From Escherichia coli (GTDB lineage Bacteria > Pseudomonadota > Gammaproteobacteria > Enterobacterales > Enterobacteriaceae): a stretch of DNA of 64,000 nt. The stretch lies in NCBI RefSeq assembly GCF_009931435.1, contig NZ_CP043414.1. One strand, written 5' to 3'. Below the pieces are notes generated by a model. The model ran no database searches, had not been told where the DNA came from, and saw only the letters and a list, made by a program, of their open reading frames with translations. Both the position numbers and the translations under genes were made by a program. Shown in pieces: positions 2 to 19,716 of this stretch; positions within the stretch are counted from its first letter, which is position 1; every line of letters starts with the position of its first letter.

Positions 2-1537
<1,536 letters not shown>

Positions 1538-1546
1538 GGAAGCTCG

Positions 1547-3631
1547 ATGGAAAGCAAACGTCTGGATAATGCCGCGCTGGCGGCGGGGATCAGCCCCAAT
1601 TACATCAATGCCCACGGTAAACCGCAGTCGATTAGCGCCGAAACCAAACGGCGTTTGCTTGACGCGATGCATCAACGTACCGCCACGAAAGTGGCGGTAA
1701 CGCCAGTCCCGAATGTCATGGTCTATACCAGCGGCAAAAAAATGCCGATGGCGGTGGAGGGCAGCGGCGAATATAGCTGGCTGCTGACCACCGAAGAAGG
1801 AACGCAATACAAAGGCCATGTAACGGGGGGCAAAGCGTTCAATTTACCGACGAAGTTGCCGGAAGGTTATCACACGTTGACACTCACCCAGGACGACCAG
1901 CGCGCGCATTGCCGGGTGATTGTCGCCCCGAAACGCTGTTACGAACCGCAGGCGTTGCTGAATAAACAAAAGCTGTGGGGCGCCTGCGTCCAGCTTTATA
2001 CGCTGCGATCGGAAAAAAACTGGGGTATTGGGGATTTTGGCGATCTCAAAGTGATGCTGGTGGATGTGGCAAAACGTGGCGGGGCTTTCATCGGTCTGAA
2101 CCCGATTCATGCGCTCTATCCGGCAAATCCGGAAAGTGCCAGTCCGTATAGCCCGTCTTCTCGTCGCTGGCTAAATGTGGTTTATATCGACGTTAACGCC
2201 GTCGAAGATTTCCATCTTAGCGAAGAGGCTCAGACCTGGTGGCAGTTACCGACCACGCAACAGACGCTGCAACAGGCACGGGATGCCGACTGGGTCGATT
2301 ACTCCACCGTCACTGCGCTGAAAATGACAGCATTGCGGATGGCGTGGAAAGGTTTTGCGCAACGTGATGATGAGCAGATGGCCGCGTTTCGCCAGTTTGT
2401 TGCAGAGCAGGGCGACAGCCTGTTCTGGCAGGCGGCGTTTGACGCGTTACATGCCCAGCAAGTGAAAGAAGACGAAATGCGCTGGGGCTGGCCTGCATGG
2501 CCAAAGATGTATCAGAACGTGGATTCACCAGAAGTGCGTCAGTTCTGCGAAGAACATCGTGATGACGTCGATTTTTATCTCTGGTTGCAGTGGCTGGCTT
2601 ACAGCCAGTTTGCCGCCTGCTGGGAGATAAGCCAGGGCCATGAAATGCCGATTGGCTTGTACCGTGATCTGGCGGTTGGCGTAGCAGAGGGTGGAGCAGA
2701 AACCTGGTGCGACCGGGAGTTGTATTGCCTGAAAGCGTCGGTGGGCGCGCCGCCGGATATCCTCGGCCCGTTGGGGCAGAACTGGGGATTGCCGCCGATG
2801 GATCCGCATATCATCACCGCGCGTGCCTATGAACCGTTTATCGAGCTGTTGCGTGCCAATATGCAAAACTGCGGCGCGTTGCGAATTGACCATGTGATGT
2901 CGATGCTGCGTTTGTGGTGGATACCGTATGGCGAGACGGCAGATCAGGGCGCGTATGTTCACTATCCGGTAGATGATCTGCTCTCGATTCTGGCACTCGA
3001 AAGTAAGCGCCATCGCTGCATGGTGATTGGTGAAGACCTCGGCACTGTACCGGTAGAGATTGTCGGTAAACTGCGCAGCAGCGGTGTGTACTCCTACAAA
3101 GTGCTCTATTTCGAAAGCGACCACGAGAAGACATTCCGCGCGCCGAAAGCGTATCCGGAGCAGTCGATGGCGGTTGCGGCGACACACGACCTGCCTACAC
3201 TGCGTGGCTACTGGGAGAGCGGGGATTTAACACTGGGCAAAACGCTGGGGCTGTACCCGGATGAAGTGGTATTGCGCGGTCTGTATCAGTATCGCGAACT
3301 GGCGAAGCAAGGGTTACTGGATGCACTGCATAAACATGGTTGCCTGCCAAAACGTGCGGGGCATAAGGCATCGTTAATGTCGATGACGCCGATGCTTAAT
3401 CGTGGTTTGCAACGTTATATCGCTGATAGTAACAGTGCTCTGTTAGGGCTTCAGCCAGAAGACTGGCTGGATATGGCCGAACCGGTAAATATTCCCGGAA
3501 CCAGTTACCAGTATAAAAACTGGCGACGTAAGCTTTCTGCAACGCTTGAGTCGATGTTTGCCGATGATGGCGTGAACAAGTTGCTGAAGGATTTGGACAG
3601 ACGGCGCAGAGCGGCTGCGAAGAAGCAGTAG
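1547..3631 (+). CDS. malQ: 4-alpha-glucanotransferase (amylomaltase)
   Basis: 694-aa ORF, recognised as MalQ; position directly after malP. Confidence 0.95.
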   Translation: MESKRLDNAALAAGISPNYINAHGKPQSISAETKRRLLDAMHQRTATKVAVTPVPNVMVYTSGKKMPMAVEGSGEYSWLLTTEEGTQYKGHVTGGKAFNLPTKLPEGYHTLTLTQDDQRAHCRVIVAPKRCYEPQALLNKQKLWGACVQLYTLRSEKNWGIGDFGDLKVMLVDVAKRGGAFIGLNPIHALYPANPESASPYSPSSRRWLNVVYIDVNAVEDFHLSEEAQTWWQLPTTQQTLQQARDADWVDYSTVTALKMTALRMAWKGFAQRDDEQMAAFRQFVAEQGDSLFWQAAFDALHAQQVKEDEMRWGWPAWPKMYQNVDSPEVRQFCEEHRDDVDFYLWLQWLAYSQFAACWEISQGHEMPIGLYRDLAVGVAEGGAETWCDRELYCLKASVGAPPDILGPLGQNWGLPPMDPHIITARAYEPFIELLRANMQNCGALRIDHVMSMLRLWWIPYGETADQGAYVHYPVDDLLSILALESKRHRCMVIGEDLGTVPVEIVGKLRSSGVYSYKVLYFESDHEKTFRAPKAYPEQSMAVAATHDLPTLRGYWESGDLTLGKTLGLYPDEVVLRGLYQYRELAKQGLLDALHKHGCLPKRAGHKASLMSMTPMLNRGLQRYIADSNSALLGLQPEDWLDMAEPVNIPGTSYQYKNWRRKLSATLESMFADDGVNKLLKDLDRRRRAAAKKQ

Positions 3632-6680: not shown

Positions 6681-7469
<789 letters not shown>

Positions 7470-14253: not shown

Positions 14254-14730
14254 TTACGGTTTCACGTACTCGATAGCATTAACATACCAGCTCGCTTCCC
14301 CGGCAGGGGTATTGACCACCGCCAGATCGCCCACCTCTTTTTTCAGCAATGCGCGGGCCATTGGGGAATCGATAGAGATGTAATCTTTACGGCCAAAAAT
14401 TTCATCGTAGCCGACAATACGAAAACGGTGAGTCACGCCATCGTCGTTTTCAATCTCCACCCATGCGCCAAAAAAGACTTTGCCTTCCTGTTGCGGGGAG
14501 TAATCGACGATTTTGAGATTTTCCATGCATTTAGTGAGATAGCGCACGCGACGGTCGATTTCACGCAGACGCTTTTTATTATACTGATAGTCAGCATTTT
14601 CGCTGCGGTCGCCCAGACTTGCAGCCCAGGTCACTTTTTTTGTGACCTCCGGGCGCTCTTCACGCCAGAGATAATTTAGCTCTTGTTTGAGTTTTTCATA
14701 CCCTTCCCGGGTAACCAGGGGCGTTTTCAT
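14254..14730 (-). CDS. greB: transcription elongation factor GreB
   Basis: 158 aa from MKTPLVTREGYEKLKQEL; ORF track shows a 12-codon upstream extension. Confidence 0.93.
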   Translation of the reverse strand: MKTPLVTREGYEKLKQELNYLWREERPEVTKKVTWAASLGDRSENADYQYNKKRLREIDRRVRYLTKCMENLKIVDYSPQQEGKVFFGAWVEIENDDGVTHRFRIVGYDEIFGRKDYISIDSPMARALLKKEVGDLAVVNTPAGEASWYVNAIEYVKP

Positions 14731-14957
14731 CTCGTTGATTCCCTTTGTCTGTTTGATAATGCGCACATTGGGTATAACGTGATCATATCAACAGAATCAA
14801 TAATGTTTCGCCGAATAAATTGTATACTTAAGCTGCTGTTTAATATGCTTTGTAACAATTTAGGCTGAAATTCATACCAGATTTAGCTGGTGACGAACGT
14901 AAGCTTTTTTAAGAATACACGCTTACAAATTGTTGCGAACCTTTGGGAGTACAAAGA

Positions 14958-17026
<2,069 letters not shown>

Positions 17027-17034
17027 ATAAAACA

Positions 17035-17064
17035 GGAGGCGAAGGTGCCTCCCGTTTTATTTTG
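17035..17064 (+). terminator. rho-independent terminator after envZ
   Basis: Stem ggaggc/gcctcc followed by cgTTTTaTTTT. Confidence 0.7.
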
Positions 17065-17189
17065 TGCACTCAGTATCTACTGAATGAATACGGTTTCAGA
17101 CATCGGCACCATACGAAGTAAAGTGTACTGTAAGCTGATTGCAGGCTAGCGTATCCTGATTAGTAAAAGCACACTAAAGGAATAGCTTG

Positions 17190-18473
17190 ATGCAACTTAC
17201 CAACGAAGAACAAGTACAGATTGCTCGTATAAAAGAAAAAATCCCACGCATTGCCGCACTGGATCCTGAATGTAAGTTATTCGGTTCTGAAGGTTGGAAA
17301 TATCAATGGCCGAAGCCTGCCAGCGAGGCGGAAATAGCTTCCTGGGAGAAAAAACATAGCGTCACTTTGCCACGGGAATATCGAATTTTTCTTCGCTATA
17401 TCGCTAATGGCGGTCCGGCACATGCCTACGGTCTTGAATCTTTAGGCGGTACAGATATTTATGGCGATATAACAAAAGAAAGCCCTGTACCGCTTTATAT
17501 GACGCAGCAGGATGTTGATGTGTTGAATGCTGGCCGTACAGAAGATGATGAAGAATATAGTTTTTTTGACGGCGCATTGACCATTCTCACCCTGGGATGT
17601 ACTTATGATATTTGCCTGGTGGTGACGGGGCAGTATCGCGGAAGGTTAATGCTGACTGATGGTGATGAAGATTATCCGTTTGATTTTATATATGATAAAA
17701 ATTTCCTCAACTGGTATGAACGCTGGCTGGACGATTTTATTGCTGGCATGAGTATGAAGGGTTTCGATAGAAGTTTGCCAGGAACGCAAATTCAACTGCG
17801 TGAGTGGTTTTTAACTGAGAAAATCCCGGATTTACGTAGATCCATTTTATTCTCGCTATGCCGTTTTCCACAGATAGAACCCGAAACTTTTGCCCTTTGG
17901 GAACATGTTTGCCGCACAGAGAATGATAAAGAATTGTGTGAAGAGGCATTCATAAGATTACGCCAAAAAAAAGTTTCTTGTGCTGCAGATATTTTTCGAC
18001 TCTATTTTACAATGCCAGATGAATTACGTGATATTGCTATTAAAGATCTCCGTTTTGCCTGTAGAGATAGTGTGGTGAATATTGAGGATTATATTCATTC
18101 ACTGTTAATAATAATGCCTGAACTTGACGATGACACTCTATCCTCAGCTGTCTTTGCTATACGAGAAACAGAGTATAATAAATATGATACTTTTCTGCCG
18201 CTTCTCGAACGTATCACTGATGACCGTCAGCAAACATTATTGTGGGCGATGAGTAAGGTGCCTGATTTCAATGAAAGCCGAGGATTCGTTGAGTTGGTAT
18301 TACCGCTTTTTGCATCATCAAAGATGGAGAATGTAAGGAAGGCTATTTTGTTGCTCATTGAAGTTAAAGATAATCGTATTCCACCATTGGTTGATGAAGC
18401 TGCAACTCGTTTCCCTGAACTGACCATTTTACGAGAAAACTACTATCTCAGGACGTGGGGACATAAGCCATAA
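17190..18473 (+). CDS. SMI1/KNR4 (SUKH-1) domain protein with C-terminal helical-repeat extension; accessory cassette gene 1
   Basis: ATG at 17190 preceded by AGGA; N-terminal roughly 190 aa carries SUKH-1 hallmarks (WEKKHSVTLPREYRIFLRYIANGG ... FLNWYERWLDDFI); C-terminal roughly 230 aa is leucine-rich and helical; region visibly AT-rich. Confidence 0.7.
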   Translation: MQLTNEEQVQIARIKEKIPRIAALDPECKLFGSEGWKYQWPKPASEAEIASWEKKHSVTLPREYRIFLRYIANGGPAHAYGLESLGGTDIYGDITKESPVPLYMTQQDVDVLNAGRTEDDEEYSFFDGALTILTLGCTYDICLVVTGQYRGRLMLTDGDEDYPFDFIYDKNFLNWYERWLDDFIAGMSMKGFDRSLPGTQIQLREWFLTEKIPDLRRSILFSLCRFPQIEPETFALWEHVCRTENDKELCEEAFIRLRQKKVSCAADIFRLYFTMPDELRDIAIKDLRFACRDSVVNIEDYIHSLLIIMPELDDDTLSSAVFAIRETEYNKYDTFLPLLERITDDRQQTLLWAMSKVPDFNESRGFVELVLPLFASSKMENVRKAILLLIEVKDNRIPPLVDEAATRFPELTILRENYYLRTWGHKP

Positions 18474-18510
18474 ATTAATGGTTCAGAAATGATCTAACGC
18501 GGAGAAAAAT

Positions 18511-19041
18511 ATGATCAGGGAACATATTCAGCAAGCGATAAATAATAGGTTAGCATTTGATGGCCCATTCAATGTTGTTCCTGAACCTGCAAGCACTGCG
18601 TTTGATAGCCGGATCCCGACATTGAAAAACGGTGTCTGGCAGAAGGCCAGCCCTATGTTGCAGGCGCGTTTTGCACATTGTGGACGTTGGTTAAGCGCTA
18701 CACATGGAAGCTGGCTAAGTATAAGTGACATGGAAACGCTTTGGCAGGAACACATAGAAGATACGTTTCTTGATGAAATCAAAATGAATGCTGTAGCTTC
18801 AAGTGATAATTGGGATAACCATGCCTTGGGACTATTTCGTTCTCATCGCCTGTCACTTTTTGCCGGTAGTGATTACAGTTATGAGATGGTTTTTCTCCTT
18901 TGGCTAGATAGTACCGTTGAGCCAGAGGTCTGGGTTTATGACTGCAATGGGGAATCACGTTATAAAGATCTTAATGATTACCTGAATGCATATATTAATG
19001 ATGACGTAAGCGCCTGTGAGCGCTCCTGGCGAGTAGAATGA
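18511..19041 (+). CDS. hypothetical protein, possibly immunity-like; accessory cassette gene 2
   Basis: 176-aa ORF, ATG with GGAG RBS 7 bp upstream; 37 bp after gene 1; no TM segment seen; family not recognised. Confidence 0.55.
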   Translation: MIREHIQQAINNRLAFDGPFNVVPEPASTAFDSRIPTLKNGVWQKASPMLQARFAHCGRWLSATHGSWLSISDMETLWQEHIEDTFLDEIKMNAVASSDNWDNHALGLFRSHRLSLFAGSDYSYEMVFLLWLDSTVEPEVWVYDCNGESRYKDLNDYLNAYINDDVSACERSWRVE

Positions 19042-19664
19042 ATAGCCCCCCTTGCCCCTTTGATCCACAAACCGCACATTACCTCGGTACAGTGCAAATC
19101 CACTACACCTCAACCACCTTCAACGCTGCCGTTAAGCATTATACCTGTTACATTAAAAAGCGTTTTAAAGGGGTTAAATGGGGAATTGGTACCGCTGGCT
19201 TATTGGCTATATTGCCCATGATCCCACAATGGTTGAAACCTTCTCATGACTTTAAACTCAACGCAATCAGTACGTTAATTCTTCTATTAATGTTGCCACT
19301 CCTCTTATCAATGTTCCTGTTAATCAGCAGAAGAATTAACGATTTTAAGTCAAAAACAAAGCAAGTTACTTTTACGAAACCCGTGCGTTATGCGTTTTAT
19401 TTCGAGGGGATTGTTTTTTATGAATCTCATCAGCAGGGCATACTTCGCTGGGAAGATTTTTATAGCATTGAGTATGAAGAAGATTATTTGTGGCTTTTTC
19501 TGCATTTACCGAAGAGTTGGCCCAGAGAAGCGACGAAAGCGTTTTGCGATATTTTCATTCCCACCAGCGCGATAAAAGCGCAGCCTGAACTGGATACGTT
19601 TTTTCGTGAAACACGCCACTCGCTGGATTATCTGTTTGTCCCGTTTAATTCTGACAGAAAATAA
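19038..19664 (+). CDS. two-TM membrane protein with C-terminal soluble domain (YcxB/bacterial PH-like by eye); accessory cassette gene 3
   Basis: 208-aa ORF; start overlaps gene 2 stop by 4 bp (ATGA); two hydrophobic helices (WGIGTAGLLAILPMIPQWL; AISTLILLLMLPLLLSMFLLI) then about 100-aa soluble tail. Confidence 0.55.
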   Translation: MNSPPCPFDPQTAHYLGTVQIHYTSTTFNAAVKHYTCYIKKRFKGVKWGIGTAGLLAILPMIPQWLKPSHDFKLNAISTLILLLMLPLLLSMFLLISRRINDFKSKTKQVTFTKPVRYAFYFEGIVFYESHQQGILRWEDFYSIEYEEDYLWLFLHLPKSWPREATKAFCDIFIPTSAIKAQPELDTFFRETRHSLDYLFVPFNSDRK

Positions 19665-19700
19665 AAAATCCCCCGTATCTGGTGAAACGGGGGATTTCGT
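19662..19700 (-). terminator. rho-independent terminator of pck, also closing the cassette
   Basis: Stem tcccccgt/acggggga; on the minus strand it is followed by TTTTTTA; lies 3 bp after the gene 3 stop and 17 bp after the pck stop. Confidence 0.7.
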
Positions 19701-19716
19701 CGCTTAACTTATCGGA

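Follow-up and report, generated by a model that had tools for sequence, protein, structure and literature searches.

Immunity proteins with the SUKH fold are well known, as are Rhs nuclease effectors encoded next to an immunity gene (RhsI) and orphan immunity genes. A close precedent for the gene examined here is provided by the orphan SUKH genes (I2) of the Bacteroidales rAID, which encode two SUKH domains and neutralise a WHH nuclease. SUKH orphan immunity proteins that are 38–39% identical to the cognate protein still protect against the WHH nuclease, and these orphan copies bind it with nanomolar affinity via an acidic patch (PMC12247911). Canonical SUKH immunity is represented by Bacillus subtilis YobK (PDB 2prv) and Vibrio parahaemolyticus RhsPI (PDB 8bd1), and the DUF1851 protein Tdi1 (PDB 8g0k) provides immunity to the Ntox15 DNase Tde1. 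We analysed a 176-aa protein of Escherichia coli, encoded by a gene designated g2 below. The evidence makes it probable that g2 belongs to an undescribed SUKH-fold immunity family directed against one Rhs C-terminal toxin domain (CT), and that it functions as orphan immunity at this locus. The novelty is modest and consists of an immunity family without a sequence model, together with its toxin domain, present in E. coli in both armed and orphan forms.

The gene lies within a 64,000-nucleotide stretch of an E. coli chromosome (the window), in the order tex, greB, ompR, envZ, g1, g2, g3, pckA, yhgE. The coordinates of the relevant features are collected in Table 1. The original prediction had placed g2 in the middle of a cassette, and this is what we found: g1 lies upstream and g3 downstream, and all three are contained in the low-GC insert between envZ and pckA. 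GC content falls from 0.566 in envZ to 0.425 past the envZ terminator. The insert is small and horizontally acquired; g1, g2 and g3 are the only genes between envZ and pckA, and no recombinase ORF was found there. A second immunity-type gene is present in the form of g1, named 'SMI1/KNR4 family protein' by PGAP, which matches the Pfam models SMI1_KNR4 (E = 2.7e-6) and SUKH_6 (E = 3.4e-5); its remaining ~250 residues received no family assignment. Two other explanations of the insert were considered and rejected. A phage origin was dismissed because there was no PHROGs match and no phage genes lie nearby, and a role in partnership with envZ or pckA because the insert is missing from >99% of E. 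coli. In the mechanical ORF list greB (14254–14766) begins at a GTG and encodes 170 aa, as against 158 aa in RefSeq, which is merely a difference in ORF calling.

Table 1 Features of the envZ-pckA insert (positions within the window)
Feature	Position	Strand	Basis or remark
Entire envZ-pckA insert g1-g2-g3, 2.7 kb	17027..19716	.	41–44% GC, flanks 52–57%; in 18 of 5,426 complete E. coli genomes
envZ terminator hairpin, left edge of the low-GC insert	17035..17062	+	Terminator-like stem-loop, then a run of T
g1, 428 aa, N-terminal SMI1_KNR4/SUKH_6 domain (residues 44–170) and ~250-aa C-terminal extension	17187..18473	+	Pfam
GGAG ribosome-binding site, 6 nt 5' of the g2 ATG	18501..18504	+	Sequence read
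g2, 176 codons (ATG at 18511, TGA stop ending at 19041), predicted SUKH-fold protein; putative orphan homologue of the RhsI for a predicted NucB/HNH-like Rhs C-terminal nuclease toxin	18511..19041	+	
g3, 208-aa basic membrane protein	19038..19664	+	Hydropathy; pI 9.15

g2 is a true conserved gene and not a chance ORF. This conclusion is based on its annotation by PGAP (hypothetical protein WP_000617564.1), on its homologue clusters and on the excess of synonymous over non-synonymous change. Homologues form 34 clusters at 90% identity in a set of 5.8 billion proteins, and the family comprises 184 representatives at E ≤ 0.001 in a 50%-clustered set. Comparison with the E. albertii orthologue gave pN = 0.074 and pS = 0.178, a relaxed dN/dS of about 0.39, and pN was far below pS in all remoter pairs compared. 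The near-invariant residues of the family (L50, R53, W60, L69, L129, W131, E137 and P138) are all present in g2, and D133, E137, D144 and E148 are conserved acidic residues. The original prediction had described a soluble, acidic, Trp-rich protein with a good ribosome-binding site and no transmembrane segment, and each of these properties was borne out. The product has a pI of 4.79, with 26 Asp and Glu against 14 Lys and Arg residues, and contains eight Trp (4.5%); since its highest 19-residue Kyte-Doolittle mean is just 1.0, it lacks a transmembrane segment. The C-terminal pattern singled out in the same prediction, VWVYDCNGESRYKDLNDYLNAYI, occupies residues 140–162 and turned out to be the best-conserved block of the family, with the consensus EPExWVYDxNGESRYxxLxxYL. 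In a separate observation, nine stretches of the 1630-aa protein P0152 match g2 residues 131–167, which suggests a repeat resembling the EPExWVYDxNG strand pair.

The likeness of g2 to SUKH/Imm-type proteins, also noted earlier, is upheld by its predicted structure and not by sequence models. The best Pfam match of g2 was DUF3884 at E = 0.22. When 132 relatives were searched singly, none matched a Pfam model at E ≤ 0.001, the best result being SUKH_5 at E = 0.053 for one member. NCBIfam, PADLOC and PHROGs returned no match to g2, and no family was found when the PDB was searched with g2 by phmmer and with the family profile; N-terminal matches of the family profile to beta-lactamases in the PDB (E 0.02–1.5) were judged to be due to chance. 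Alignment of the family profile by hhalign to two canonical SUKH sequences, the SUKH domain of g1 and a Bacteroidales SMI1_KNR4 protein, gave a probability below 1%. In contrast to these negative results, Foldseek of g2 against AFDB50 yielded 28 matches at E ≤ 0.001, mostly labelled 'SMI1/KNR4 family' by UniProt, among them relatives from Lonsdalea and Phocaeicola with 49–54% identity. Lin2918, PSPTO_5518, 4iqn and Syd were also listed in connection with the g2 fold. Because the SUKH sequence models and hhalign were negative, the placement of g2 in the SUKH superfamily is based on its predicted structure, in which the alpha+beta fold of this superfamily is seen; g2 is thus predicted to have a SUKH fold yet falls outside the current sequence models. 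Unlike YobK and RhsPI, g2 matches no SUKH-clan Pfam model significantly, and its family has motifs of its own (IPTL..G.Y...SPML..RF, ATHG.WLS and EPE.WVYD.NGESRY) and pairs with another, unnamed toxin domain. Tdi1 differs further: g2 is only 7% identical to it, and Tdi1 belongs to another Pfam family and counters another toxin fold (Ntox15).

The evidence for immunity comes from the gene neighbourhoods of the relatives. Proteins with 40–57% identity to g2 are encoded immediately after a single type of Rhs C-terminal toxin domain, the CT, which is conserved but unnamed. A profile scan of one genome per species retrieved 30 loci encoding g2 relatives. In 10 of these 30 species genomes, which span four bacterial classes and more than one phylum (Serratia rubidaea, Lonsdalea iberica, Pectobacterium zantedeschiae, Azovibrio restrictus, two Sphingomonas, Burkholderia turbans, Aggregatibacter kilianii, a Bacteroides MAG and Phocaeicola coprophilus) the same CT ends 5–114 nt before the relative, each time behind an Rhs DPxGL junction; no toxin adjoins the homologue in the other 20. 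Some of the linked loci carry a full-length Rhs and others orphan CT fragments. In toxin-bearing strains the immunity gene follows the rhs stop at a distance of 5–20 nt. A complete example is found in Pectobacterium parmentieri, where VgrG, DcrB/Eag and a 1423-aa PAAR-Rhs are followed, after a gap of 20 nt, by a homologue 56% identical to g2. The P. parmentieri Rhs ends, past its DPFGL cleavage motif, in a 125-aa domain without a Pfam match. On a metagenome contig this CT is fused ahead of the homologue P0036, a short CT tail precedes the distant member P0147, and a JGI locus has a CT remnant upstream of the homologue in another frame. The linked relatives have the position expected of RhsI, directly downstream of the CT on the same strand, and g2 does not. 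Relatives on Bacteroidales contigs lie in arrays with Imm19, SMI1_KNR4, Imm21 and Imm32 and a tyrosine recombinase, a relative in Corticimicrobacter adjoins a SUKH_6 gene, and a few relatives stand alone. Taken together with the predicted SUKH fold, the Rhs linkage and the immunity arrays support the earlier suggestion that g2 is an immunity-like module, and at the level of the family we hold this assignment with high confidence. It is extremely improbable that g2 is instead a SUKH-fold housekeeping or regulatory protein, like Syd or yeast Smi1/Knr4, with no tie to toxins: the same CT lies immediately upstream of g2 relatives at no fewer than 12 independent loci, relatives occur in immunity-gene arrays, and the gene is sporadic, strain-specific and low in GC.

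The CT is about 125 aa long and has the invariant signature GHxPDVGWGG ... VNxYxGG. Its homologues are borne by Rhs and PT-HINT proteins of Salmonella, Serratia, Pectobacterium, Lonsdalea and Dickeya. For the toxin, Pfam searches with one sequence and with 22 members, an NCBIfam search and a PDB profile picked up the Rhs core and PT-HINT parts only, and never the CT. The structural model of the CT is similar to the DNase NucB and to the HNH-type Rhs2-CT, with a moderate fold match. In beta-beta-alpha-metal nucleases, strand 1 ends in a catalytic His or acid, and the helix carries an Asn or His that binds the metal. In the CT model the invariant H81 ends the strand 77–81 and the invariant N103 starts the helix 100–112, an arrangement that would correspond to this layout. 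The CT is predicted to be a beta-beta-alpha-metal (NucB/HNH-like) DNase; since no sequence model supports the nuclease assignment, we infer it from the moderate fold match. NucB carries an acidic DE motif at the place where the CT has GHxPD. Unlike the CT, NucB is a secreted enzyme and no toxin cargo; the CT is 11% identical to the Bacillus licheniformis protein (PDB 6ejs) and has no match to Pfam DNase_NucA_NucB. The toxin of the Serratia marcescens Rhs2-CT/RhsI2 pair (PDB 9t38; bioRxiv 10.1101/2025.10.28.685041) belongs to a different sequence family from the CT, and RhsI2 is absent among the structural neighbours of g2.

The armed form of this system is present in E. coli itself. When E. 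coli genomes were searched by blastn with the Serratia CT, 70 of 5,426 (~1.3%) carried the domain, in the arrangement VgrG-Eag-Rhs-immunity, and across these 70 the segment spanning CT and immunity gene has ≥99% identity. In strain 05-3629 (L050, 2855–7909), genes for VgrG, a DcrB-related protein and a 1503-aa Rhs with the CT (6990–7366) are followed after 12 nt by one for a 176-aa 'hypothetical protein', which shares 54% identity with g2 along its entire length. The CT motif of that locus reads GHTPDVGWGG ... VNSYVGG; CT and immunity protein are annotated only generically, and the pair appears uncharacterised. Among the enterobacterial members of the family g2 is the most diverged, with 52–57% identity to the toxin-linked copies. 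None of the 18 genomes with the insert is among the 69 listed of the 70 toxin genomes, and tblastn of the CT against the window found no copy or remnant. These two results make g2 an orphan in its own genome, a gene with toxin-linked homologues in a genome without the toxin, within the reach of a DNA-level search that passes over a CT below ~70% DNA identity. Since relatives of g2 lie immediately after a nuclease-type Rhs toxin in many bacteria, g2 itself is most likely an antidote gene that stands alone, without a toxin, and since it has no toxin partner and lies beside the SUKH gene g1 in a small acquired insert, its likely role is orphan immunity. The earlier reading of g2 as orphan immunity is supported. 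The insert has just three genes and no recombinase. Islands of the rAID/AID type hold many immunity genes and a tyrosine recombinase, as do the arrays of the Bacteroidales relatives and as the insert does not.

Nearly all complete E. coli genomes other than the 18 that carry the insert at ≥99% identity are empty at this site. Diverged versions were found at the same site in related lineages. In E. albertii, g2 and g3 are 84% and 76% identical and g1 is either whole or split; in some strains it forms two ORFs, of 295 aa and 132 aa. In a cryptic Escherichia lineage (L018-type), g2 and g3 are 66% and 60% identical, and an unrelated 142-aa first gene is present instead of g1; this version was not found among complete E. 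coli genomes. At the same site E. coli A30 (L002, 3089–4129) has a single ORF of 346 aa. It joins in frame to g3 a HEAT-like protein of 142 aa, which has 85% identity to the first L018-type island gene. g2 is exactly missing from A30, as if its cassette had been cleanly deleted. Outside Escherichia, neither g1 nor g3 neighbours any g2 homologue. A search of plasmids gave just one match, from Sphingomonas, so plasmid carriage is no feature of this gene.

These comparisons bear on two other readings of the locus. In the first, g2 and g3, perhaps with g1, would form a locus-specific system, for example for stress or anti-phage defence, with a soluble SUKH sensor and a membrane effector. The g2 stop and the g3 start overlap (ATGA, 19038–19041), and g3, whose hydropathy peaks at 2.6 near residue 78, has weak family matches throughout, to MASE8, YcxB and the PADLOC model PycTM (E = 0.0099). 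Within the site g2 and g3 also stay together, in three diverged versions (99%, 84/76% and 66/60% identity). Against this reading, g3 is retained without g2 in A30 and g2 homologues outside Escherichia have no g1 or g3 neighbour. Moreover, the g3 family comprises 18 homologue clusters whose organism-named sources are all Enterobacteriaceae (Escherichia, Salmonella and close relatives), whereas the relatives of g2 span four classes and are paired with a toxin, the PycTM match is marginal and spans the transmembrane region only, and PADLOC and PHROGs found nothing for g1 or g2. We therefore regard such a system as very unlikely. The second reading, in which g2 is left over from a former toxin-immunity module and is decaying, an open frame without function, draws on its rarity in E. 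coli, its clean loss in A30, the relaxed dN/dS, the splitting of g1 in some E. albertii and the lack of a toxin or toxin remnant beside it. It is opposed by a reading frame that is intact in all 18 island genomes and both diverged variants, by pN far below pS throughout, by the retention of every near-invariant family residue and by a good ribosome-binding site, and we consider it unlikely.

Orphan immunity thus remains the favoured role of g2. Our overall judgement that it is probable combines the strong family-level assignment with a lower confidence in this particular copy, for which protection against a circulating toxin is about an even chance. The cognate toxin would be the CT carried by T6SS Rhs proteins and PT-HINT proteins. 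The immunity protein presumably binds the nuclease domain as a tight 1:1 complex in the cytoplasm and, by analogy with other SUKH immunity proteins, may block its active site or DNA-binding face. As an orphan, g2 would protect against attackers that inject the CT, including the E. coli with the VgrG-Eag-Rhs locus. DNase activity, direct binding and cross-protection by the 54%-identical g2 are what we infer from these comparisons. That an acidic protein (pI 4.8) of this divergence might still recognise the toxin has a precedent, though not a proof, in the Bacteroidales orphans (PMC12247911). Like g2, the I2 genes have diverged from the cognate copy, occur in effector-less strains and encode acidic proteins; the effector is a nuclease in both cases (for g2 a predicted one), and some g2 relatives share with I2 an array with a tyrosine recombinase. 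In contrast, g2 has one SUKH domain and pairs with the NucB-like CT, and its protection is a prediction for a three-gene insert without a recombinase, where that of I2 in the rAID has been demonstrated (PMC12247911). As the most diverged enterobacterial member, with its dN/dS of 0.39 and its loss in A30, g2 may no longer neutralise any circulating toxin. More speculatively, the insert could be a within-species defence islet, in which g2 (perhaps with g1) makes a rare E. coli lineage resistant to the T6SS Rhs nuclease of ~1.3% of other E. coli despite 54% identity to the cognate immunity protein, or g2 and its translationally coupled membrane partner g3 could be a sensor-effector pair that answers the injected toxin rather than sequestering it; we think either improbable.

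The analysis provides a well-supported functional prediction, immunity to an Rhs-delivered nuclease, for WP_000617564.1 and ~180 representative relatives. The toxin-immunity pair has no Pfam, NCBIfam or PADLOC model and could enter catalogues of effectors and immunity proteins. Because E. coli holds the armed form in 70 genomes and the orphan form in 18, it offers a tractable natural system in which one could ask by how much a SUKH immunity protein may diverge before protection is lost, as has recently begun to be asked in gut Bacteroidales.

Several loci of the family have incomplete toxins. At the two Sphingomonas loci the CT is disrupted, by a frameshift in one (L035, 5512–5884) and by an in-frame stop in the other (L038, 5513–5884), with an intact immunity ORF in both; judged from their sequences, these look like toxin loss in progress. 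A small ORF upstream of the homologue in Brenneria was considered as a toxin remnant and rejected, as it encodes an unrelated secreted peptide. At three further loci (L006, 5815–5984; L007 and L008, 257–426) just the last ~55 residues of the CT are left upstream of the immunity homologue. The first of these is part of a long series of small genes without annotation, along with a transposase; this region is likely an immunity island.
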